A stretch of DNA of 34,397 bases, taken from the IMG/VR virus record IMGVR_UViG_2541047966_000009; one strand, given 5' to 3'. Under the pieces are notes generated by a model. That model saw nothing but the letters and a program-made list of their open reading frames with translations, was not told the origin of the DNA and ran no database searches. The position numbers and the translations under genes were made by a program. Below, piece after piece: positions 4,458 through 34,082 of the stretch. Numbering within the stretch: the first letter of the stretch is position 1; the number at the start of each line of letters is the position of its first letter. The DNA comes from a virus. Taxonomy: Duplodnaviria; Heunggongvirae; Uroviricota; Caudoviricetes.

Positions 4458-5338
4458 ACACTCCTCGTCAGTATTCTGGCGGCCATTGCACTTAATCCCG
4501 GAGACATGCGGTTGAATGCTGTGCCGGCGGCGTTAAGCTGCCCGGAAACGGTATCCAGAGCACCTGCAATATTTCTTTTGTCCACACCACTCAGCGCCGA
4601 CTGCGCCTGCTGTACATACGTGGCTGCCTCACTGGCTGTTCTGGCCAGACTGATGGCATCGGGCATGGATTCAGAGAGTGCATTAAACGCCGGAACACTT
4701 TTCCCCAGAGCTCCGGATATATTACCCAGTCCGCTCATCAGTCCAGGCACACGGGTCAGCGCGACAACGGGGTTACCCTTCATTTTCTGCGCCACCCGAA
4801 CGGCACTGATAGTGGTCTGGAGTACAGACTGCGCCTGTTTCGCATAGTTGACGCCGTTACGGACGAACTGCGCCACCCCGGAAGGCGATGGAACAGCACC
4901 CGATACAGCTCCGGCACCGGGAACCTGCCTGCGTATTGCCGGCGGTTGCAGAGGATTTTTCGGGTCACCGGTGTATTCCCGGAGAGACACGGTGGCACTG
5001 ACAGCCAGCACGTTACCGGTGCTGTCTGTCTGCTCGCTGGTTGCGGTCACATCGGTAATCACGAACCAGCCGCGATAGTCACCGTTGCCGAAGACCAGCG
5101 CCAGTGCCTGATGGGCCTTCATGGCTGTTCGCACTCTCGCCAGCTCCACGTCGGGCACACAATAATGCTGATGGAAGACCAGGCTTATCTGGATTTCGTC
5201 CAGCCTGTCGCCGACAAACTGCAGGCCGGGTTTACCCTCGATGCGGGCATGCTCCGCATAATCGACGCCGAACGTGGCCTCGAAGCCGTCCCAGTAGGTA
5301 ATCAGTTCAAACTCAATATCACCCAGTACGGCAAACAT
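4454..5338 (-). CDS. tail protein following tape measure (P2 gpU / Mu gp43 DNA-circulation N-domain-like)
   Basis: 294-aa ORF directly after tape measure gene with overlapping stop/start; Ala/Ser/Gly-rich C-terminal half. Confidence 0.5.
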   Translation of the reverse strand: MFAVLGDIEFELITYWDGFEATFGVDYAEHARIEGKPGLQFVGDRLDEIQISLVFHQHYCVPDVELARVRTAMKAHQALALVFGNGDYRGWFVITDVTATSEQTDSTGNVLAVSATVSLREYTGDPKNPLQPPAIRRQVPGAGAVSGAVPSPSGVAQFVRNGVNYAKQAQSVLQTTISAVRVAQKMKGNPVVALTRVPGLMSGLGNISGALGKSVPAFNALSESMPDAISLARTASEAATYVQQAQSALSGVDKRNIAGALDTVSGQLNAAGTAFNRMSPGLSAMAARILTRSV

Positions 5339-7803
5339 CAGCTGTACTCCTTACGTTGTTTCTGAGCCAGCAGACGCTCCAGCATTTTTTCCAGCTCATG
5401 CAGGCTCATATTCAGGGCACCAGTCAGCCCGGCAGGCGCTGCGGTTTCCTTACCATTGAGGAAAAACTGAGGATTAAAGCTGACCTGGATACCGCCAGAC
5501 GCTCCACCGCCAGTTGCCGTTGCACCACGGCCTGAATATCCGGCAGCCATGATTTTCGGCGACGGGATACGGGGAACATCCGGTGTCATTTCAGCGGCCA
5601 GGCGCTGCCCGGCCAGTGCAGCAAGCGGAGTGGTCCGTTGCAGGCCAATGGCGGCACCCTGCGCGATATTGTCACCAAAGCCCATAAACACGCGACTCGG
5701 TGAATGGATGCCCAGCTTTTCGCTGAACCAGTCACTGATGCTGTCACCCATTCCGGTTACGCTGGTTTTGAGTGACGCCCATTTGTTTCTGATGCCATTT
5801 ATCAACCCGTCAATAAGATGACCACCGAAGTCGGTGAATTTCGCCGGCAGATCAACGCCGAGATATTTCAGCGCAGCCGCAAAGGCTTTATAAAGCAGAC
5901 CAGCCGGAGACCAGTTAACCAGCAGTTTACCAATTCCCACGATGCCGCCGTTAAAGGCTTCCTGAATGTCAGCCCAGCGCTGTTTAAACCAGCTACTGAC
6001 TGCGCCCCAGTTGCGGTAGATAAGGTAAGCTGCTGCCGCGACGGCGGTGATAACGAGACCGATGGGATTCATCAGCAGCGCCCGGCCAATCCAGAGAACG
6101 GCACGCCCGGCGCTCATAATTCCGCGAACCAGCCCCCCTGAGAGCACACCACCCAGTGTTCTGGCTCCTCTGGCGACAGCACCAAAGCCTGTCACCAGCC
6201 AGCGGAGTTTACCGCCTTCCCCCAGTGCGAGCGTCAGACGAAGCCAGTTGGCCCGAAGTAAAACAGCATTTTTCCAGACGCTTACAAAGGGGGAAAGAAG
6301 GAGATTCAGCCCAAGCTTGAGACCGATAGTGGCCATCCTGAAAGCGAGTAATGCGCCCACAACCTTTATGGTGCTGCTGACGAGCTGCGGATTTGCCGCT
6401 ATCCATTTGCCAACACTGTCCATTAAAGGAATAAATGTTTCACCCAACTGGAGCAAAGCCGGACGCAAGGATTGCCCGATGCTGATAGCAGAATCATTAA
6501 AGCCGATCTGCATTCTGCGCCAGCGACCTTCAAGCGTATCATTCTGCTTTGCAGCATCCTTATCCAGGGTAGAAATTGCAGCCGGAGCATTCATTTCCTG
6601 CTTACTGGAAAGGTATTTATCCCAGCCCTGTCGCATTGACAGTAAATGGTTGACAGTCTGAATATCGGTAAAGACCTCAGCCAGACCAAATGACTCCATG
6701 AGTTTCTGCTGACCTTCCTGATCGCCTCTTGCTCCTGCAGCTTTCCATTGCTGCAAGAACGCTTTGCCTTTACTGTCGATAAAACGGTTGGCAATCATCA
6801 GTGAAGCTTCGTACTGCGAAAAACCCTGAGCGACGTAATTCTGCATTGACCCCTGGTAATCCACCCCGGCTTTAGCATATTTCTGGATGGTATCTCCGCG
6901 GCCCATTGCTGCCAGCCAGTTGGACATATTGGTGACCGCTTCCTCTGCAGAGCCACTACCTTTACCGACCTCCAGACTGGCAACAATCTGGGTAATCGCA
7001 TCTTTTCCATAAATACCACGAGCAGCGAAGGCTTTAGCCATACCGGGTAATGCTTTTGCCATATCCTTCAGCTCAAATGACCCAAGTTTGGCTCCTGTTG
7101 CCGCAATACCAAACGCCTGTTCAAGTTCTTTCGCATCAGTGATTCTGAGTGCATCGCTGAAGGCATAAGTCATTTTGGCAAGGTCGGTCATATCGGCTTT
7201 GGTTGCTGTAGCGGTCTTTCCAAGCATCTCTGCAAACGTTGCTGCCCGTTCGGGGGCCATACCATCAGCAACTAATTGTCCGACTCCCCCTAACAGAGAC
7301 TCCTGCAGTTGGTTAACCTTCAGCGAGGCCTGTCTGATAGCCTGGCCAATTGCACGTTCCTGTTTTGCATCCAGGTCTCCTGTGACACTGATATCCCGCA
7401 ACTGTGATTCAAACGAGGCATATTGTTTAACCGAGGCCATGACCGGTGCGCCCAGCGTTCTGCCAATAGCATAGGTTTCTGCACCCTGACCATAGAGCGC
7501 CAGGCGGTTAGCCTTCAACGCATCACCGGTGGCTGATACTGCTGACAGACGGCGCTGCTGACGTTCAATTTGCTCCATGGTGCGGCTTACCCGCAGCAAC
7601 TCGCTGTTGAGATGCTGCATCCGGGAAGAACCCAGTTGACCATAACGTTCTGTTGCCCGGGTTAAGGCATTCTGGCGTTCCTGCAGACGGCGGGAGGTAT
7701 CACCAAGGGAATCAAGGGCGCGTCGGGTGCCACTGACGGCTGAGCGGAAGCTGCTCCCGACAATGCCGCCAATAATGACGCCGACTGAAAATTCACTGGC
7801 CAC
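5338..7803 (-). CDS. tail tape measure protein
   Basis: 821-aa ORF, largest in tail module; Ala/Gly/Leu-rich with hydrophobic segments; GTG start preceded by GAGGA. Confidence 0.8.
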   Translation of the reverse strand: MASEFSVGVIIGGIVGSSFRSAVSGTRRALDSLGDTSRRLQERQNALTRATERYGQLGSSRMQHLNSELLRVSRTMEQIERQQRRLSAVSATGDALKANRLALYGQGAETYAIGRTLGAPVMASVKQYASFESQLRDISVTGDLDAKQERAIGQAIRQASLKVNQLQESLLGGVGQLVADGMAPERAATFAEMLGKTATATKADMTDLAKMTYAFSDALRITDAKELEQAFGIAATGAKLGSFELKDMAKALPGMAKAFAARGIYGKDAITQIVASLEVGKGSGSAEEAVTNMSNWLAAMGRGDTIQKYAKAGVDYQGSMQNYVAQGFSQYEASLMIANRFIDSKGKAFLQQWKAAGARGDQEGQQKLMESFGLAEVFTDIQTVNHLLSMRQGWDKYLSSKQEMNAPAAISTLDKDAAKQNDTLEGRWRRMQIGFNDSAISIGQSLRPALLQLGETFIPLMDSVGKWIAANPQLVSSTIKVVGALLAFRMATIGLKLGLNLLLSPFVSVWKNAVLLRANWLRLTLALGEGGKLRWLVTGFGAVARGARTLGGVLSGGLVRGIMSAGRAVLWIGRALLMNPIGLVITAVAAAAYLIYRNWGAVSSWFKQRWADIQEAFNGGIVGIGKLLVNWSPAGLLYKAFAAALKYLGVDLPAKFTDFGGHLIDGLINGIRNKWASLKTSVTGMGDSISDWFSEKLGIHSPSRVFMGFGDNIAQGAAIGLQRTTPLAALAGQRLAAEMTPDVPRIPSPKIMAAGYSGRGATATGGGASGGIQVSFNPQFFLNGKETAAPAGLTGALNMSLHELEKMLERLLAQKQRKEYS

Positions 7804-20620: not shown

Positions 20621-21338
20621 AACTGCTGCCTCCCCATGTGAGATATCGCGGTGCCAGTTCGCGCAGGATGCGCTGCGGATAATGGCGGTTCTCCCGCCAG
20701 CTGGCCGCATTGCGTCCGGCATTCACCGTGGCGACATGTCCGAACCAGCGGGTGCTGTCCAGACCTTTCTGTGATGCAAGCCGCCTGTCCCGTTGTACCC
20801 AGCCCAGACCACCGTTATAGCCCGACAGTGTCATGGCCATACGCTCGCAGTCGTTGGCGGCGCTTACGCGCTGCCACAGCCAGCGGTCATAGCTGACCAG
20901 CGCCCGGATAGCCCATGCAGGATTAAACGGCTCACGACTGCTCAGCATCGGTATCAACTGGCTTATCCAGTCGGCAGTGGCAGGCATGAACTGCGCCAGT
21001 CCCTGAGCGCCAGCCGGCGAGACCGCATCAGGTCGCCAGCCGCTTTCCTGATGCAGTTGCGCGGCGAAATCGGCCACCGGCGCAGACAGTCCCCATTCAA
21101 GCCGGGCATTACGGATCACATCATCGCGATACTGCAGCGCAGCCTGCGGAGGCTGCGCTGCGCGGGCCTGACTGAAGAAGCCGCCACACCAGAGCAGCCA
21201 GACAATCACCAGGTTGCCAGCAAGCTGCCACCAGAAGCTGTATTTATCGTTACGTGGTTCTCCGTGCCTGATGGCGGTTACGCCCAGACCAAAGGCGAAC
21301 AGAATAATGAGGGTGATTTGAGGCCAGTTCATGGTCAC
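20604..21338 (-). CDS. endolysin: lytic transglycosylase (SLT domain) with N-terminal membrane/SAR-like segments
   Basis: SLT catalytic region ...AAQLHQESGWRPDAVSPAGAQGLAQFMPATA...; N-terminus has two hydrophobic stretches; sits between holin-like and spanin genes. Confidence 0.75.
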   Translation of the reverse strand: MTMNWPQITLIILFAFGLGVTAIRHGEPRNDKYSFWWQLAGNLVIVWLLWCGGFFSQARAAQPPQAALQYRDDVIRNARLEWGLSAPVADFAAQLHQESGWRPDAVSPAGAQGLAQFMPATADWISQLIPMLSSREPFNPAWAIRALVSYDRWLWQRVSAANDCERMAMTLSGYNGGLGWVQRDRRLASQKGLDSTRWFGHVATVNAGRNAASWRENRHYPQRILRELAPRYLTWGGSSCVASG

Positions 21339-21685
21339 AGTCCTGTTGCCACAGCCAGACAGACCGCTGCAACAATCAGTGCACGGCGGATTAACGCAGC
21401 AGAAAATACAAGGTGAAGGCCGGTCTGCACAGGGAAACGCCCTTCAGCCATCAGTCTGTCGTCATGTTTCAGGTACTGACCGGGACGGGCTTTGGGGAAG
21501 AGCGAACGGTCAAGCCAGTAACCCAGCACTGCTGCCAGCGTGATGAGTGCCAGCTTGTAGATCACAACAGGCAACTGCTGTGGCGAGACCAGAGCGATGG
21601 TGCCCAGCAGCAGCACTGAGGTCAGCAGCCAGCCGCTGAGGCGAGGTTTTTTAACAGGGGGAATGAATTTTTTCAGGTTTTTCAT
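21335..21685 (-). CDS. putative holin/pinholin (3 predicted TM segments)
   Basis: Start at ATG (MKNLKKF...) preceded by strong SD GAGGAG; three hydrophobic segments; first gene of lysis cassette, overlapping endolysin start. Confidence 0.5.
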   Translation of the reverse strand: MKNLKKFIPPVKKPRLSGWLLTSVLLLGTIALVSPQQLPVVIYKLALITLAAVLGYWLDRSLFPKARPGQYLKHDDRLMAEGRFPVQTGLHLVFSAALIRRALIVAAVCLAVATGL

Positions 21686-21932
21686 GTGTGTCTCCTCGTT
21701 TGGTGGAGACAGCATCACAAATGTGGCGGGATACGGATTTTAAACAGCGTTAATAGTGAAGATGTAAACGTGCACTGCATGATGGCTTTGAAAGAACGAC
21801 CAGCCCGGTACCCGAACACCGGGCTGGCCATCGCCCCACAGGAATGCGCTGTGAGCCGACCAAGGTTCAGTCAGTCTCGCGAGACCAGACTAGCCTGCCA
21901 TATTTTTTATAATTGTAAAAGGCTTACAGATT
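21686..21932. promoter_or_regulatory. divergent intergenic region: candidate late-operon promoter (leftward) and dam promoter (rightward)
   Basis: 247-bp non-coding gap between divergent holin and methyltransferase genes; contains perfect 10-bp inverted repeat CCAGCCCGGT-n8-ACCGGGCTGG at ~21800-21827 and AT-rich TTTTTTATAATTGTAAAAGG before dam. Confidence 0.4.
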
Positions 21933-22703
21933 ATGAAAATGCAGACATTACCCATCGTTCCATGGATTGGTGGCAAACGCCGCCTTGCAAAACACATCCT
22001 GCCGCTGTTTCCGGCGCATGAATGTTATGTGGAGCCGTTTTGTGGGGCAGCAGCGCTCTATTTTCTTAAGGTACCCGGCAAGATCGAAGTCATTAATGAT
22101 ATCAACGGTGAGCTGGTGAACCTGTATCGGGTGGTAAAACATCATCTGGAAGAATTTGTACGCCAGTTCAAATGGGCGCTGGTCAGCCGGCAGATCTACA
22201 AATGGCTGCAGATCACCCCGGAAGAAACACTGACGGATATCCAGCGTGCAGCACGGTTCTACTACCTTCAGAAGCAGGCGTTTGGGGGCAAGGTGGCGGA
22301 GCACAGCTTTGGTACCTCCACCATATCCCCGCCACGCTTCAACCTGCTGCGTATTGAAGAAGAACTGTCAGCGGCACACCTGCGGCTTTCCAGAACGGTC
22401 ATAGAACACATGGACTGGCAACAGTGCATAGAACGATATGATCGCCCGCATACGTTGTTCTACTGTGACCCTCCATACTGGGGAACGGAAGGTTATGGTG
22501 TGGAGTTCGGACTAGAAAATTATGATCATATGGCAGATTTAGCACGCAGGATCAAAGGGAAGATGATTATATCGGTGAACGATATCCCGGAAATGCGGCA
22601 GGCATTCAACGGTCTAAATATTCAGTCGGTTGATATCAGCTACAACCTCAAGATCACTGGCAAATCCAGTCGCAAGAAGGAACTCATTATCCTCAACTTT
22701 TGA
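21933..22703 (+). CDS. DNA N6-adenine methyltransferase, Dam-like, apparently orphan
   Basis: 256-aa ORF; SAM-binding motif EPFCGAAALYF near N-terminus and catalytic DPPY (FYCDPPYWGTEGYG) near C-terminus; no adjacent restriction endonuclease candidate. Confidence 0.8.
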   Translation: MKMQTLPIVPWIGGKRRLAKHILPLFPAHECYVEPFCGAAALYFLKVPGKIEVINDINGELVNLYRVVKHHLEEFVRQFKWALVSRQIYKWLQITPEETLTDIQRAARFYYLQKQAFGGKVAEHSFGTSTISPPRFNLLRIEEELSAAHLRLSRTVIEHMDWQQCIERYDRPHTLFYCDPPYWGTEGYGVEFGLENYDHMADLARRIKGKMIISVNDIPEMRQAFNGLNIQSVDISYNLKITGKSSRKKELIILNF

Positions 22704-23898
22704 CCGAATAGTAAGACTTCATGCAGTGAATCAAGTACTGCATGAAGTCAAGGGCTGGTTTTGTGTACCAAAAATAAACAGTGATAGCGGTAATAATTCC
22801 CATAACTAGAACACCACGTATAATCCAGAACGTACGTTTCTGCGTGTCTAGTCGCGCAGAAATACTGCTAAATACACCAGCCACGTCATCTTTAATGAAG
22901 GAATATTCCTTATTAATCTGTTTTTCTTTGTATTCAATTTCTTCGCCTAAGGCCTTTATAGATTGCATCTGGTTCGAAAGTGCCAGCCAGATTAACGTTG
23001 CAGCAAAAATGCATCCCAGAAGAATTATTGTGTTTGTTATCCCTTGGCCTGACCATTTCGTAGCCACTTTGAATTGGGTAGCTACGATAACAGAGGCAAC
23101 AGGAATGCCAAGTATATGGTTCTGGATATCTGAAAACGCTTTGTGGATTTTACCCATTTCTTCGACTTTTGCAGCACGCAGTTGATCCATTACTTTGTCA
23201 TAAGAGAATCCAGAAGAGTAGATACGATACCCTTTCAGAAACTTTTCATGCAGACGCTGAATATTGTCCAGTAAATAAGCGAATACTAGAGGTGAATCAA
23301 TTCCATCACTAACTGCTTGAATACTTTCAATCAGAATATCTAGCTTCTGATCCTTATGGGTATCATCATTGAAACAAGCTATAAGGTTATCAAGATACTC
23401 CCTTTGCAAATTTTGTACATTTTCTGCAGCGAAGTGCGGTAATAGCTTGATAACTTCTTTTTTCAGAAAAACTAACTGACAAGTTGAGTTATCAAAGTAG
23501 GCCGCGGCCTCTTTTAGCAGGTTAACGAACTCGAGAATCTTCCGGTAGTTGCTGATGAAAACGGGGATATCTTCATCATCATTACGAAATTTTGTTTCTA
23601 GGATGAAGTAATTAGCTGGCTCAAGGCACTGATGCTTTGGAGCATTTAGCAATTTTTCATGGGTGGAAAACACAAGTCCCAGTCCACTCCGTGGTGACGT
23701 CACACGTAGGATGATCGTGTTACCTGGAGCGATAGTGCCTGTATCAATAGAAAGACCATATTCACGAGGATCATCAAGCAAAGTATCAACCAGATCACAA
23801 TCGGACTGATCTAAGAGCAACAGCGAACCGACACGAAACCCCTCTTGGAATTCCATACGACGATACAGAGCTGTCAGCATCTCAAATGAAATCGCCAC
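22693..23898 (-). CDS. membrane protein of unknown function (large N-terminal soluble domain, two C-terminal TM helices); candidate effector
   Basis: 401-aa ORF, AT-rich; GTG start 2 nt after NdpA-like stop (coupled), internal ATG 18 nt later; hydrophobic ITNTIILLGCIFAATLIWLAL and TFWIIRGVLVMGIITAITVYFWY near C-terminus; no recognisable catalytic motif. Confidence 0.6.
   Translation of the reverse strand: MAISFEMLTALYRRMEFQEGFRVGSLLLLDQSDCDLVDTLLDDPREYGLSIDTGTIAPGNTIILRVTSPRSGLGLVFSTHEKLLNAPKHQCLEPANYFILETKFRNDDEDIPVFISNYRKILEFVNLLKEAAAYFDNSTCQLVFLKKEVIKLLPHFAAENVQNLQREYLDNLIACFNDDTHKDQKLDILIESIQAVSDGIDSPLVFAYLLDNIQRLHEKFLKGYRIYSSGFSYDKVMDQLRAAKVEEMGKIHKAFSDIQNHILGIPVASVIVATQFKVATKWSGQGITNTIILLGCIFAATLIWLALSNQMQSIKALGEEIEYKEKQINKEYSFIKDDVAGVFSSISARLDTQKRTFWIIRGVLVMGIITAITVYFWYTKPALDFMQYLIHCMKSYYSVKS
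22715..22749. other. perfect 13-bp inverted repeat (hairpin) at the convergent dam / membrane-protein gene ends
   Basis: GACTTCATGCAGT-gaatcaagt-ACTGCATGAAGTC, starting ~12 nt after the dam stop and overlapping the last codons of the minus-strand 401-aa gene; no adjacent U-tract. Confidence 0.4.
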
Positions 23899-23900
23899 GA

Positions 23901-24908
23901 TTAAACCTCAGTCATCCACATTTCCCTAAATTCTTCAGGTACATTACGTAGGGTGATAATATTTGTTTCCGGATCATAATCAATATAGCCTTCAGTTTTC
24001 CCTTCCCGGTCAAACTTAAGTTCCCAATATTTAGACTTGCCTTTAAAAGATACCAGAGCCCGAATGACTCGACCATCAGGAACGAAGCCATCCGATAACT
24101 CCAACTCTTCAGCAGCAAGTTTACCAGATAACTCCTCGGGAGCCTGGGGCCAAATGGCATTAACAAGGGTTTCAAGACTAAGTGGTTCACCAGCCTTACT
24201 TAGTGCATGTAAGTGTTCAAACGCATTCTTAAGAAATGCATCTTTTTCAGCGCCGTCAAGTCCTTTCTCTGCCGCAAATGCTTTTAAAACGTCACGTAAC
24301 TTTTCAGACTCTCGTTTGGCGATTAAGACATCATTACAGCCTAGGAACTGTTTAAAATAGTTTGAAACATTACCTTGCCCCTTAAGAAAACTGATATAGC
24401 GCTCTGCGCCACTTTCCCACGCGGTTAAGTCAATGCGCCCAGCCATACGCAGCTTAGCAATATCAAGATAGGTACTATCTTGGATGTTAAAATCATCTGT
24501 GACAGTGGACCCAATGGTAGCGCTTACAATAGCTATCAACAGGTGTTCATTGTGTCCTATCACGATATTTGCAAAAAGAACATAACCACCAGTAGCCATG
24601 TTTTCTCGCTGAGAACGTTCCGTCAGGTGATGCATCATTCGGCAGGAACTTTGGTAGAAATCATCAACACCTTCGAGAAAGTCCCCAGCCATTCGTTCCA
24701 TAGGATAGTTATCCGTATCGCCTTCAAAATAGCCATAACCTTTACCTGTGCGTCCTGCATATTTTGCACAAATATCGTTTATAAGGCGCTGAGAGGCTTC
24801 AGTAACTAGACCTTCTTCAGGACTCAATCTCTCAGAAGCGTCTCCATTTTGTTGTTTGTCTAAAATGTGAACTACAACGTGTTTAACTTCAATGGTCTGC
24901 TCAGACAT
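23901..24908 (-). CDS. divergent NdpA/YejK-family nucleoid-associated protein homologue
   Basis: 335-aa ORF (same length as E. coli YejK); recalled family similarity in ...GGYVLFANIV..., ...STYLDIAKLRMAGRIDLTAWESGAERYISFLKGQGNVSNYFKQFLG... and C-terminal ...YDPETNIITLRNVPEEFRE; SD AAGGTGG 8 nt upstream; AT-rich. Confidence 0.6.
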   Translation of the reverse strand: MSEQTIEVKHVVVHILDKQQNGDASERLSPEEGLVTEASQRLINDICAKYAGRTGKGYGYFEGDTDNYPMERMAGDFLEGVDDFYQSSCRMMHHLTERSQRENMATGGYVLFANIVIGHNEHLLIAIVSATIGSTVTDDFNIQDSTYLDIAKLRMAGRIDLTAWESGAERYISFLKGQGNVSNYFKQFLGCNDVLIAKRESEKLRDVLKAFAAEKGLDGAEKDAFLKNAFEHLHALSKAGEPLSLETLVNAIWPQAPEELSGKLAAEELELSDGFVPDGRVIRALVSFKGKSKYWELKFDREGKTEGYIDYDPETNIITLRNVPEEFREMWMTEV

Positions 24909-24978: not shown

Positions 24979-25386
24979 TTAACCCACATTTTTTAACCGC
25001 TCAATCGTTGCGGATAATTCCTTCAGTTGTTTTTCCATCTCAATCACACGCTGTTTTTCTTCAGCGCCTCGCATGAGATCTCGCCGAACCTCAGGATCTA
25101 ACTGGTTTAGAAGTTCAAGCATTTTAAGGTCTGACGGGCTGAATTGATGTTGTGTTGGTACAGCAACAATTTCTTTAGATGGAATATGTTCTTTACCGGT
25201 AAGTAGCCAATCGATCGATACACCCAAATGGGCACTTAGCGCAACAAGAGCCTCTGCGTTTGGTTCTCTCTCTCCACGCAAATAGTTTTGAAGTGAGCGA
25301 TATGGAATTTTTGATAAGTCAGATAATGCCTTTATTGTCATGCCATTAGCATCCATCACTTCACGCAATCTCTCTTTTGTACTCAT
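24979..25386 (-). CDS. prophage repressor, XRE-family HTH
   Basis: Start at ATG MSTKERLREVMDANGMTIKALSDLSKIPYRSLQNYLRGEREPNAEALVALSAHLGVSIDWLL (HTH at N-terminus), coiled-coil C-terminus; divergent from Ner-like gene; ORF-track TTG start at 25482 unlikely. Confidence 0.7.
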   Translation of the reverse strand: MSTKERLREVMDANGMTIKALSDLSKIPYRSLQNYLRGEREPNAEALVALSAHLGVSIDWLLTGKEHIPSKEIVAVPTQHQFSPSDLKMLELLNQLDPEVRRDLMRGAEEKQRVIEMEKQLKELSATIERLKNVG

Positions 25387-30803: not shown

Positions 30804-30998
30804 ATGATATTTAAATGTATTCAGTGCGAGAGGGATATAACAGCCCTGCGTTTTCACAGCGCCATCGCCGTGATGTCCGGTAAGTACCACGTACCTGCAG
30901 TACGTGTCACCCTGGTCTGTCCGTACTGCAGCCAGCATTTTTCGGCGGACGTGCCCGTCATGGAATTCTCCCGCCCTGACAGGGAGGACGCGCAATGA
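30804..30998 (+). CDS. small zinc-ribbon-like protein
   Basis: 64-aa ORF with two CxxC pairs (CIQC ... CPYC); SD GAGGAG upstream. Confidence 0.45.
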   Translation: MIFKCIQCERDITALRFHSAIAVMSGKYHVPAVRVTLVCPYCSQHFSADVPVMEFSRPDREDAQ

Positions 30999-33279: not shown

Positions 33280-33721
33280 ACAACGTCTTATCCAGCTCAT
33301 TCATATTGCCCGTAATGAACTGGGTATGGATGAAGACACCTACCGCCAGATGTTACAGGGGCTGACCGGTAAAGCCTCAACCAAAGGAATGGATACCACA
33401 CAACTAAACTGCGTGCTGGAATCCATGAAAAGGAAAGGCTTTCGCGTTAGGCCTGCAGGAAAAGCCAGCTCCGGTTTACCGCTGGATAACCATCCGCAAT
33501 CCAGGAAAATCCGTGCGCTATGGCTTGAAATGGCTGCTGCCGGCATTGTTCGTGACCGTTCAGAAAATGCATTAGCGCGGTGGATCAAGCGGGAAACGGG
33601 CATCAGCGCCCTGCGCTGGCTCAATACTGAACAGGCAAGCAGTGTTATTGAGAAACTGAAGAAGTGGCAGCGCAGAGCTGCGGGAGTAAAACATGAGCGA
33701 CCTGAATCAGTTTCGAAGTAA
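33269..33721 (+). CDS. GemA / Mu gp16-like regulatory protein
   Basis: Start ATG preceded by AGGAG; ...YRQMLQGLTGKASTKGMDTTQLNCVLESMKRKGF... resembles GemA-family proteins; precedes Mor-like gene as in Mu. Confidence 0.55.
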   Translation: MMTKQRLIQLIHIARNELGMDEDTYRQMLQGLTGKASTKGMDTTQLNCVLESMKRKGFRVRPAGKASSGLPLDNHPQSRKIRALWLEMAAAGIVRDRSENALARWIKRETGISALRWLNTEQASSVIEKLKKWQRRAAGVKHERPESVSK

Positions 33722-34082
33722 AGGGCCGGAACTCCTGGTGGAACTGGCACAGCATACCTCTGAGACCGTTCGCGAGATTATTGATATTGAGCCCGCAATT
33801 GCCGACCAGATTGGTCAGGCCGTCGCGAACCGCATGATGCAGGTCTGGGGCGGGCAAAACGTTTATTTCCCGATGGGCATGGTATGGAAGGTCAGTCAGC
33901 GCGACCGGGAAATCTTCAGGGAGTTTAACGGACGTAATCACCATGAACTGGCCCGCAAATTTGGTGTTTCGCTTCAGTGGGTCTACAGCGTGGTTAAGCG
34001 GGTAAGAAAAGAAGAACTGGATCGGATGCAGGGCAAGCTATTTGCTGATGAACCCGATGTAGATACGGAGAAAAAAGAGTAA
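33693..34082 (+). CDS. mor: Mor/C-family transcriptional activator (middle/late gene activator)
   Basis: 129-aa ORF (Mu Mor is 129 aa); C-terminal ...GGQNVYFPMG...REFNGRNHHELARKFGVSLQWVYSVVKR... resembles the Mor/C HTH region. Confidence 0.7.
   Translation: MSDLNQFRSKGPELLVELAQHTSETVREIIDIEPAIADQIGQAVANRMMQVWGGQNVYFPMGMVWKVSQRDREIFREFNGRNHHELARKFGVSLQWVYSVVKRVRKEELDRMQGKLFADEPDVDTEKKE

Follow-up and report, generated by a model that had tools for sequence, protein, structure and literature searches.

The methyltransferase gene and its setting

The window analysed here, a stretch of 34,397 nucleotides recorded as IMG/VR virus IMGVR_UViG_2541047966_000009, is 100% identical to the chromosome of E. 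coli MS20655. It carries Mu-like early genes for a transposase, Gam and Mor (33693-34082) together with a late operon on the minus strand, and is by its sequence an E. coli prophage of the transposable, BcepMu-like kind. Two relatives, KP12 and PhiKM, were obtained as phage isolates, and PhiKM has been placed in Bcepmuvirus. The methyltransferase gene lies on the plus strand and, as originally predicted, diverges from the late operon, which begins with the holin gene (Table 1).

Table 1. Features at the methyltransferase locus (positions in the window)
Feature	Position	Strand	Basis or remark
Holin, first gene of the minus-strand lysis/late operon	21335-21685	-	PF13272 E=1e-40; RefSeq annotation
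Conserved 18-mer TTTAAACAGCGTTAATAG, between holin and leader	21739-21756		Unique in the window
Conserved structured 5' leader RNA, about 140-145 nt	21789-21932	+	Covariance model, 159 bits in the window
Leader hairpin 1, 10-bp stem, 8-nt loop	21800-21827	+	Inverted repeat; covariation
Leader hairpin 2, CACAG / CUGUG	21837-21853	+	Mutually exclusive with the Shine-Dalgarno-occluding helix
Anti-Shine-Dalgarno strand CUGUGAGCC	21849-21857	+	Pairs with 21921-21929
Leader hairpin 3, holding the perfect palindrome GTCTCGCGAGAC (21874-21885)	21863-21896	+	Stem covaries
Shine-Dalgarno side of the occluding helix GGCUUACAG	21921-21929	+	3 nt upstream of ATG
D12/alpha-class DNA methyltransferase CDS, orphan	21933-22703	+	ATG-to-TGA ORF, 256 aa, RefSeq annotation
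Motif I, SAM-binding loop, F36-C-G-A-A40	22038-22052	+	Sequence; aligned with E. coli Dam FVGAG
Motif IV, catalytic, D179-P-P-Y182	22467-22478	+	Sequence; invariant in clade alignments and in Dam
401-aa cargo protein, C-terminal membrane region	22693-23898	-	Convergent with methyltransferase, 11-bp overlap
NdpA/YejK-like nucleoid-associated protein	23901-24908	-	PF04245 E=6e-81
HTH (cI-type) repressor, edge of cargo slot	24979-25386	-	PF01381, PF07022; RefSeq annotation

The encoded protein is identical to RefSeq WP_000783856.1 and matches the Pfam family of D12 class N6-adenine DNA methyltransferases, PF02086, over residues 11-234 (E=7e-28; 98.4 bits, the cut-off being 22). Among enzymes of solved structure in the PDB, DpnM, E. 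coli Dam and M.CbeI matched it at E values of 1e-14 to 5e-17. Its motifs follow the alpha order, with motif I preceding a target-recognition region (approximately residues 66-160) and then DPPY. The DPPY motif that had been predicted is indeed present. Motif I is present too but does not have the FxGxG form predicted for it: it reads FxGxA, a variant in which the final Gly is replaced by Ala, the corresponding residues being FAGGA in relatives. Values of dN/dS against orthologs range from 0.04 to 0.14, and this strong purifying selection shows that the ORF is more than a chance reading frame. On the evidence of its sequence, the window holds an intact, selectively maintained gene for a D12/alpha-class DNA amino-methyltransferase, with catalysis as a predicted property. 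The gene is present in about 10% of complete E. coli genomes, its carriers including the pandemic ST131 clone.

Sequence comparison also shows that the gene is already catalogued rather than new, a point outside the original prediction. Its ortholog is M.EcoMIV (EC958_1101, WP_000783854.1) from prophage Phi2 of the E. coli ST131 strain EC958, with 88% identity overall and only 2 differences within the first 180 residues, the stretch that contains the target-recognition region; the C-terminal 70 residues have diverged, and the window allele is a mosaic. Phi2 belongs to the same BcepMu-like prophage family and also has the leader described below (138-bit model match), but its flanking cargo differs from that of the window, consisting of three small upstream ORFs without the pair of genes for the 401-aa and NdpA-like proteins. 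M.EcoMIV has been described as a putative orphan D12 methyltransferase without a characterised homolog above 65% identity, transcribed significantly below dam, and with no motif assignable to it by SMRT sequencing (Forde et al. 2015, PMC4659465). The low transcript level refers to mid-log EC958 and does not prove lytic-phase expression. Other members of the clade are phage B3 ORF48, VP882 gp37 and phiE125 gp27.

The two genes on the far side of the methyltransferase are distantly related to the anti-phage pair that NCBIfam names DS1. The 401-aa protein, which has no Pfam match and no recognisable nuclease, gives a weak match to KwaA (8e-5) and a match to NF053869 DS1_2 anti-phage (3e-21) that falls below the cut-off, as does the match of the NdpA-like protein to NF053868 DS1_1 (1.6e-17); the NdpA-like gene is always paired with the 401-aa gene. 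Domain searches recognised no nuclease domain in the adjacent genes or in the alternative neighbours found in relatives, and when neighbours were clustered across 20 enterobacterial and 68 other loci, only a Com-like regulator and the holin recurred, with no conserved nuclease partner. By this comparison the methyltransferase is solitary and has no cognate nuclease next to it, in agreement with the original prediction on both counts.

A structured leader RNA upstream of the gene

The methyltransferase gene itself is ordinary, and the more notable part of the locus is the leader RNA that precedes it, which the original prediction did not include. Of 69 other loci, 34 have a match to the leader covariance model (E<0.01) ahead of the methyltransferase or com, and the leader travels with the methyltransferase even where the upstream gene differs; outside the enterobacterial clade it begins directly after the stop codon of a same-strand upstream late gene. 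Rfam 15 gave no match at E<=5 to positions 21600-22050, and in 16 diverse loci there was no Rfam gathering-score match near the leader motif. The leader model itself did not match phage Chuche or the Mu com-mom region, and its match to Moraxella phage Mcat5 was at noise level (11.4 bits, E=0.78). A motif named 'D12-methyl' was reportedly described by Weinberg and colleagues in 2017; the main text of that paper makes no mention of it.

Conservation and pairing both point to a conserved RNA structure. At approximately 88% identity against a dS of about 0.8, the leader has evolved several-fold more slowly than synonymous sites. Its helices are paired in 92.9% and 88.5% of cells, as opposed to 28-45% with slid partners, and compensatory changes occur in 30 of the 32 pairs, though part of the covariation statistics comes from a model-fitted alignment and leans towards that structure. 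The G-U pairs are consistent with the plus strand only. Hairpin 1 covaries heavily among 55 sequences, one of its pairs being GC in 21, CG in 16, UA in 4 and AU in 3, and the stem of hairpin 3 covaries as well (GUCAUC/GAUGAC in Xenorhabdus, for example). We rejected the palindrome within hairpin 3, GTCTCGCGAGAC, as an operator; it occurs as a single copy in the window and covaries like an RNA stem.

Hairpin 2 lies outside the model structure and covaries independently, with 89% of cells paired compared with 5-50% for slid partners and with variant forms including CACUG/CAGUG, GCAG/CUGC and CACAU/AUGUG. Among 55 matches to the hairpin-2 pattern in IMG/VR, 52 have this methyltransferase about 98 nt downstream. 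The CUGUG strand is common to two helices, either forming the local hairpin or joining a long-range helix of 9 bp in which the Shine-Dalgarno sequence is buried, and the long-range helix has compensatory variants of its own, such as CUGCAAGCC/GGCUUGCAG and CUGCAAACC/GGUUUGUAG. Judged by covariation, then, two helices of the leader exclude each other, and one of them ties up the Shine-Dalgarno region by base pairing. Predicted folding energies are -49.8 and -50.5 kcal/mol for closed structures and -43.2 kcal/mol with the Shine-Dalgarno-to-AUG region open, so that the closed form of the initiation region is the more stable by about 7 kcal/mol, and in these models the leader appears to hide the ribosome-binding site of the methyltransferase.

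Reading the intergenic region as a simple promoter and terminator was rejected. A scan for consensus sites found no sigma-70 site for the plus strand in the right place, and a TATAAT at 21910-21915 was discarded as a promoter element, not being conserved in relatives. The 18-mer TTTAAACAGCGTTAATAG is found in KP12-type phages both beside the holin and beside the methyltransferase leader, and is a candidate for a shared element of divergent promoters.

We tentatively suggest, with the balance tipped slightly against it, that the leader is a previously undescribed RNA switch of approximately 140 nt that controls the methyltransferase and is widespread, moving with the clade whether or not Com is present. 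The cassette occurs in unrelated phage types (Mu-like phages, the lambdoid phiE125 and the linear-plasmid prophage VP882) in Beta- and Gammaproteobacteria. Because the cassette is self-contained, its effector may be the methyltransferase itself, which would then regulate its own translation, or a metabolite present in all cells, SAM or SAH for example. The leader is a candidate new cis-regulatory RNA that would time phage DNA modification without Com, and it could explain the silence of such prophage methyltransferases in methylome studies; if the switch is real and its effector is SAM or SAH, it would represent a new riboswitch class.

Com, Mom and the proposed role

In phage Mu, as worked out by Hattman, Kahmann and co-workers (summarised in PMC3299994), com-mom is a late DNA-modification function gated at translation, in which a stem sequesters the start signals of the modification gene. 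Members of the present clade are often placed behind a gene for the translational regulator Com or within late operons, and outside the enterobacterial clade a Com-type zinc-ribbon ORF abuts the methyltransferase in 25 of 68 loci, which suggests a Mom-like role in anti-restriction. One parallel is Pseudomonas phage B3, a transposable Mu-like phage whose ORF48 methyltransferase is 66% identical to the window protein and whose ORF47 matches the Com family PF10122 (E=4e-22); this gene pair has been described as a Com homolog and a DNA adenine methyltransferase (Braid et al. 2004, as cited in PMC3299994). A weak match to the leader motif (E=0.1) precedes com in B3 as well. In B3, com overlaps the methyltransferase start and the module sits inside a same-strand tail operon, whereas in the window the gene is divergent and Com is absent. 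Neither tblastn with the B3 and Mu Com proteins nor a CxxC...CxxC scan revealed a Com in the window, and an HMM built from 18 Com-like ORFs of relatives reached a best E value of 0.15; a 64-aa zinc-ribbon ORF at 30804-30998 was rejected as Com, as it is not PF10122. Since the window lacks Com, the analogy with com-mom control is indirect. Mu also differs in that Mom is not a methyltransferase and in having Com and Dam/OxyR/C control; what we infer for the window locus is the shared pattern of late, translationally gated DNA modification in a transposable phage.

Replacement of mom has precedent, as Mu-like prophages are known in which Dam-fold methyltransferases stand in its place behind com, and B3 ORF48 was named there as a case not yet assayed (Drozdz 2012, PMC3299994). 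We lean, modestly, towards an explanation of this kind, in which a solitary D12 methyltransferase, carried with its leader as a cassette in a BcepMu-like prophage, is an analogue of Mom for lytic anti-restriction. The enzyme would be the functional counterpart of Mu Mom, essentially silent in the lysogen and produced during lytic growth, when replicating phage DNA would be methylated before packaging and the progeny would resist restriction in the next host. The leader would gate expression post-transcriptionally, its default low-energy folds closing the translation-initiation region. Since phages of unrelated types exchange the cassette, its trigger is probably either the methyltransferase itself or some signal common to all hosts.

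Modified base, target site and alternative explanations

Among DPPY-bearing D12 enzymes the majority modify N6-adenine, and N6-adenine is most likely the base modified here. The label 'Dam-like' given in the original prediction is apt in that the protein is a D12-class amino-methyltransferase: E. coli Dam, DpnM and T4 Dam share its D12 alpha-class architecture and can be aligned with it from end to end at 25-26% identity, the T4 Dam match being marginal (E about 7e-4). Taken to mean GATC specificity, the label overstates the evidence and is not supported by the sequence. Residues K9, N120, L122 and R124 of E. coli Dam are reportedly, from the 2006 work of Horton et al., those that contact GATC, and they align with P10, G118, K120 and A122 of the window protein. 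The signature [FY]-N-G-L-x-R-x-N, which reads YNGLCRYN in Dam and FNGLYRVN in DpnM, is FGGKVAEH in the window protein. We therefore regard annotation of such genes as 'Dam / methyl-directed repair methylase' as misleading, given these differences from the Dam specificity residues and the equal closeness of an N4-cytosine enzyme.

A true Dam paralogue that methylates GATC, completing Dam methylation of fast-replicating or transposing phage DNA, is nevertheless the first alternative to weigh, though we judge it unlikely. The purpose of such an enzyme could be to avoid nicking by MutH and cleavage by methylation-sensitive enzymes or to tune Dam-sensitive transposition (compare the Dam proteins of P1, T4 and 933W). 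This alternative draws on a TIGR00571 'dam family' score just above the cut-off (116.9 bits against 114.85), on the GATC enzymes DpnM and E. coli Dam being the best solved relatives, and on a hairpin, F117-F136, equal in length to its Dam counterpart. The EC958 methylome has no extra m6A motif, as expected if host Dam masks the site, and the same holds for a lysogen of S. Typhimurium CFSAN001921, whose prophage is assumed to encode this methyltransferase. The substituted contact residues, including Pro in place of K9, argue against it, however, as do an identity to E. coli Dam of only 26%, a score of 69.2 bits against the 441 required for the Dam equivalog NF008152, and the N4-cytosine enzyme M.CbeI (GGCC; PDB 7M6B) being about as close as Dam. 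Further against it are the depletion of GATC in the phage, where it is the most depleted palindromic 4-mer of the window (83 observed against 155 expected, O/E 0.54), and the REBASE listing of M.EcoMIV as a putative type IIA enzyme with an asymmetric site (per Forde et al. 2015, PMC4659465). Depletion of GATC may alternatively explain why a phage would carry a GATC methylase, and although motif-frequency analysis brings out the depletion, the target site cannot be fixed from it. On balance, the target sequence is probably not canonical GATC. Literature searches by accession and by VP882, phiE125, B3 and M.EcoMIV found no determined site; the site of one clade member, once determined, would annotate thousands of genes.

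Somewhat less probable still is a relaxed or non-specific m6A enzyme of the Hia5/Hin1523/Nma1821 type, coating phage DNA for broad, Mom-like anti-restriction. Those enzymes, which we liken to the window protein on their published description, are Dam-fold proteins with DPPY, motif I (FxGxG) and a divergent target-recognition region, encoded behind com at the mom position of Mu-like prophages and silent in the lysogen (Drozdz 2012, PMC3299994), and the present clade is likewise com-coupled and lacks the Dam specificity residues. A search based on Com for a Pasteurellaceae proxy turned up nothing beyond the Mcat phages of Moraxella and phage Chuche. The latter was set aside, its Com being paired with an unrelated beta-class methyltransferase, and the com-linked D12-like protein of Mcat5, a possible proxy for the Hia5 family, aligns with the window protein over 93 residues at just 28% identity. 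The target-recognition region, moreover, can be aligned with that of Dam from one end to the other and is strongly conserved across the clade, which suggests a defined site.

An improbable alternative to the lytic anti-restriction role is that of a lysogenic-conversion gene (moron), expressed from the prophage for epigenetic regulation of the host or to 'vaccinate' its chromosome against restriction. The gene does sit among variable cargo, with the late operon on one side and the repressor on the other, and its 771 bp contain 7 GATC sites, unlike the GATC-poor phage backbone, which suggests a separate ancestry. In Burkholderia phage phi1026b, transcription of the homolog has been recorded in a lysogen (RPKM 21,563; PMC2920897), which fits a lysogenic-conversion role at least in phi1026b. 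Against this, the M.EcoMIV transcript lies far below that of dam and no motif was seen in EC958 (PMC4659465), folding predictions leave the initiation region closed, and in most relatives the cassette lies inside late operons or behind com. Methylation of cytosine at N4 rather than of adenine is distinctly improbable: M.CbeI is a D12 alpha-class enzyme with DPPY, about as close to the window protein as Dam, and its hairpin FSGTVDSGGYS resembles the window sequence FGGKVAEHSFG, but most DPPY-bearing D12 enzymes are adenine enzymes, and no specific evidence favours cytosine.

It is hardly credible that the methyltransferase supplies the modification activity for a defence or restriction unit with the adjacent genes for the 401-aa and NdpA-like proteins, for although the genes overlap and the pair resembles the DS1 anti-phage pair, the pair accompanies the methyltransferase in just 4 of 20 enterobacterial loci, many other neighbours take its place, it lacks a nuclease domain, and the convergent orientation indicates that this is not one operon. 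The offence/defence locus originally proposed for the methyltransferase and its neighbours is weakly supported, by the distant DS1 likeness of the pair, and a site of interchangeable cargo describes the slot better than a single offence/defence unit does.

An orphan methyltransferase in a transposable prophage

The gene called in the original prediction is indeed a 256-codon ORF, running from ATG to TGA across exactly the interval listed in the table below, and its product matches the D12 class of N6-adenine DNA methyltransferases (Pfam PF02086, E=7e-28, residues 11-234). The protein also passes the NCBIfam model TIGR00571 (116.9 bits against a cut-off of 114.85), matches PADLOC's REBASE-derived type II methyltransferase model (E=4e-115), and finds the solved structures of DpnM, E. 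coli Dam and 7M6B at E values from 5e-17 to 1e-14. The DPPY motif first read from the sequence is present, but the FxGxG motif is not, motif I being FxGxA (F-C-G-A-A). With dN/dS of 0.04-0.14 against eight orthologs, this is a working gene. The window allele is a mosaic: codons 1-185 lie nearest the EC958/PhiKM type (dN 0.011), and the C-terminal 70 codons nearest the C483/Mixta type (dN 0.03, vs 0.26 to EC958).

The element carrying the gene is a BcepMu-like transposable prophage, and the 5 kb round the methyltransferase matches the E. coli MS20655 chromosome at 100% identity; RefSeq names the protein there "DNA adenine methylase" (WP_000783856.1). Near relatives have been isolated as phages, namely Klebsiella phage KP12 and Escherichia phage PhiKM, the latter classified in Bcepmuvirus. 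As the prophage layout has the late operon on the minus strand and the methyltransferase on the plus strand, the claim of divergent transcription is correct. The host gene torS (33407-36150 in locus L001, 38680-41423 in locus L004) adjoins the right end of the prophage in MS20655 and is annotated as frameshifted there; since torS is also frameshifted in EC958, where the site has no prophage, the defect is not due to insertion.

Prophage Phi2 of EC958, an ST131 E. coli, belongs to the same phage family, and its methyltransferase (WP_000783854.1) shares 88% overall identity with the window protein, with only two differences in the first 180 residues, target-recognition region included. This ortholog is M.EcoMIV (EC958_1101), and the window gene is thus already catalogued. 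Forde et al. 2015 (PMC4659465) predict M.EcoMIV to be an orphan D12 methyltransferase of type II, with no homolog above 65% identity that has a known site; they found its mid-log transcription significantly lower than that of dam and could link no SMRT motif to the enzyme. The methyltransferase and its leader occur in 556 of 5,426 complete E. coli genomes, and homologs across Enterobacterales number several thousand, with at least 90% identity throughout among the matches listed. The enzyme is an ordinary object: a known, widespread prophage orphan.

Features of the window around the methyltransferase and its leader RNA
Feature	Position	Strand	Basis or remark
Late operon: holin, transglycosylase, spanin-like genes, DUF3486 small terminase, Mu-type head genes, P2-type tail genes	21685 down to 1	-	
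Conserved 18-mer TTTAAACAGCGTTAATAG	21739-21756		single-copy in window
Leader	21789-21932	+	
Hairpin 1	21800-21827		
Local hairpin (hairpin 2), CACAG/CUGUG	21837-21853	+	independent covariation; absent from covariance model
Long-range helix, 9 bp	CUGUGAGCC 21849-21857 with GGCUUACAG 21921-21929	+	covariation
Methyltransferase, between late operon and cargo genes	21933-22703	+	
Motif I, FxGxA		+	methyltransferase sequence and alignment
DPPY	residues 179-182	+	sequence
Two-gene cargo cassette, beyond methyltransferase	22693-24908	-	
cI-type repressor, beyond methyltransferase	24979-25386	-	
Early operon: DDE transposase, ExeA/B-like ATPase, Gam, Mor-family activator (last)		+	
64-aa zinc-ribbon ORF, early operon	30804-30998	+	

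Exchangeable neighbours and the link to Com

Among 80 loci surveyed (one genome per species, with ORFs called round each methyltransferase), the only recurring upstream families are the holin, in enterobacterial phages, and a small zinc-ribbon ORF, while at least eight unrelated families alternate downstream. The cargo slot between methyltransferase and repressor is swappable, with other unknown genes in relatives; in the window it holds a two-gene cassette of a membrane-anchored 401-aa protein, which has no Pfam match and a weak KwaA-like membrane region, and an NdpA/YejK-like protein (PF04245). No nuclease domain was found in either protein, nor in the alternative cargo genes (DUF2441, P-loop proteins, small unknowns). 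With nuclease-free neighbours and no conserved partner besides the holin and zinc-ribbon ORF, the description of the gene as an orphan lacking an adjacent cognate restriction gene is upheld. The suggested tie to the neighbouring operon holds only in part. Because the 401-aa and NdpA-like proteins match both components of the DS1 anti-phage system (NCBIfam DS1_2, 3e-21, and DS1_1, 1.6e-17; both sub-cut-off), "candidate defence cassette" is a reasonable label; but the two, although always paired, are present in just four enterobacterial loci out of 20, namely those of the window, E. coli C483, Mixta and Brenneria, and the pair is one of several slot cassettes, not a partner of the methyltransferase.

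Homologs at 64-67% identity are encoded by Pseudomonas phage B3 (ORF48), Vibrio phage VP882 (gp37), Curvibacter phage TJ1 and Burkholderia phages phiE125 and phi1026b (gp27/gp26), among others. B3 ORF47, which overlaps the methyltransferase gene, is a bona fide Com (PF10122, E=4e-22), and of 68 loci from outside the enterobacterial clade, 25 have a Com-type ORF (IRCGxC...IKCPRC) abutting the methyltransferase. In Mu, Com activates translation of mom. It is also paired with an unrelated beta-class methyltransferase in Escherichia phage Chuche and with a remote D12-like protein in Moraxella phage Mcat5, and since it is coupled to such diverse enzymes, Com-linked DNA-modification genes behave as interchangeable cassettes. 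In Mu-like prophages of Haemophilus and Neisseria, Dam-fold methyltransferases that are lysogen-silent and almost non-specific replace mom behind com, and B3 ORF48 has been named as an uncharacterised case (Drozdz et al. 2012, PMC3299994). Because these genes swap as cassettes, we infer by analogy that the window methyltransferase may be a functional analogue of Mom. No Com was found in the window; its 64-aa early-operon ORF, a CxxC-N30-CxxC zinc ribbon distinct from Pfam Com, is a conceivable candidate for a trans-acting factor for the leader. Upstream of the com and beta-class methyltransferase module of Chuche (L149 2300-2490) lie four GATC sites in about 50 bp, recalling Mu's Dam/OxyR-controlled mom promoter, and the leader motif is absent from that region.

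Target specificity

The label "Dam-like" is only partly supported: the window protein is 26% identical to the E. coli enzyme, scores 69 bits on the Dam equivalog model against a cut-off of 441, and lacks the hairpin signature [FY]-N-G-L-x-R-x-N common to the two aligned GATC enzymes, Dam (YNGLCRYN) and DpnM (FNGLYRVN). Its hairpin reads F-G-G-K-V-A-E-H, and Pro occupies the position of Dam K9. Dam residues R124, N120, L122 and K9 reportedly read GATC. The clade profile is about equally distant from DpnM (5e-19), Dam (1e-18) and 7M6B (7e-17), and T4 Dam is a marginal match.

The balance of our expectation falls on another defined site. GATC itself, which the DpnM and Dam structure matches would favour and the missing hairpin signature argues against, is an unlikely target, and a relaxed or non-specific activity, as described for the com-linked Dam-fold enzymes, is somewhat less likely still. 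Since DPPY also occurs in M.CbeI (7M6B), an N4-cytosine methyltransferase of the alpha class, this motif alone is no proof of adenine specificity; N4-cytosine modification is nevertheless improbable.

Among palindromic 4-mers, GATC is the one most under-represented across the window (1-34397), with 83 sites observed where 155 are expected; the early-operon end (28-34 kb) has hardly any, its 2-kb bins holding 0, 0, 2 and 1 sites. Counter-selection of GATC has reportedly been seen in enterobacterial phages, and the depletion does not suggest that the phage depends on its own GATC methylation. With 7 GATC sites in the 771 bp of the methyltransferase gene and a cargo region that is GATC-rich too, the contrast with the GATC-poor early-operon end suggests a different ancestry for this part of the element.

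A conserved leader with alternative helices

About 145 nt before the ATG move with the methyltransferase despite differing upstream genes (the holin in the window, DUF2441 in KP12, and further ORFs in PhiKM and EC958); alleles with a synonymous divergence of ~0.8 share ~88% identity in this leader. Across 19 enterobacterial sequences, RNAalifold finds several helices with compensatory changes in 12 pairs, 92.9% of cells being paired vs 28-44% with slid partners, and the G-U pairs are consistent with the plus strand only. A covariance model was built from 18 of the enterobacterial leaders; it recovers the motif in 34 of 69 additional loci (E<0.01), or in ~50 when hits up to E<1 are counted, with VP882, phiE125 and, as a weak hit, B3 among them. 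The motif is always on the gene's strand, with its 3' end at the start codon of com in loci that have com and of the methyltransferase in the rest. In a 55-sequence alignment, which was fitted to the model and favours its structure, 88.5% of cells are paired vs 34-45% slid, with double changes in 30 of 32 pairs. The leader has no match in Rfam 15, and the model does not match Mu com-mom.

Two of the leader helices share the strand CUGUG (21849-21853). The long-range helix masks the GG of the Shine-Dalgarno sequence, terminates 3 nt before the ATG and covaries as CUGCAAGCC/GGCUUGCAG, CUGCAAACC/GGUUUGUAG and, in Paraburkholderia, AGUGAAUU/AAUUCAUU; the local hairpin covaries as CACUG/CAGUG, GCAG/CUGC and CACAU/AUGUG, with 89% of cells paired vs 5-50% slid. 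The two states of the window leader are nearly isoenergetic by prediction (-49.8 and -50.5 kcal/mol), and opening the Shine-Dalgarno-to-AUG region is predicted to cost ~7 kcal/mol. This candidate switch was missed by the original prediction and is the part worth pursuing.

In the prophage, the gene would be kept essentially off by low transcription, as published for the ortholog, and a closed initiation region; in the lytic cycle, opening of the leader would let the enzyme modify phage DNA ahead of packaging and shield progeny from restriction. As counter-evidence, the phi1026b homolog is transcribed in the lysogen (PMC2920897). Phages of Mu-like, lambdoid and linear-plasmid types all carry the leader together with the gene, and because of this spread, and because the methyltransferase is the sole protein of the Com-less cassette, the effector would most simply be the methyltransferase itself, a universal small molecule or a host factor. 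Outside the enterobacterial clade, the leader starts directly past the stop codon of a same-strand upstream late gene and thus lies inside a late polycistronic mRNA, a location that fits late, translationally gated expression.

In relatives outside this clade (loci L033, L028, L076, L085, L005 and others), the first 10 nt of the leader, immediately after that stop codon, form a purine-rich Shine-Dalgarno-like run, AGAGAGGGCGAC, possibly a site of ribosome standby or coupling. When IMG/VR was scanned with an exact pattern for the hairpin-2 region, 55 loci were recovered; 52 of them have this methyltransferase ~98 nt downstream, and two look like deletion remnants. In E. coli A24 (NZ_CP028751.1 1877706-1877896) and IMG/VR loci L134 and L147, the leader survives with the first few dozen nucleotides of the methyltransferase gene but no intact copy, apparently as a remnant of the cassette after deletion. 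The conserved 18-mer is duplicated in KP12-type phages, which have a DUF2441 gene inserted, one copy beside the holin and one beside the leader (KP12 locus L002, ~4720-4759 and 5680-5700); it is a possible shared promoter or activator element and a candidate part of divergent Mor-dependent promoters. Hairpin 1 is followed on the minus strand by a U-rich tract and could also keep cargo and repressor transcripts of the minus strand from running into the lysis operon.
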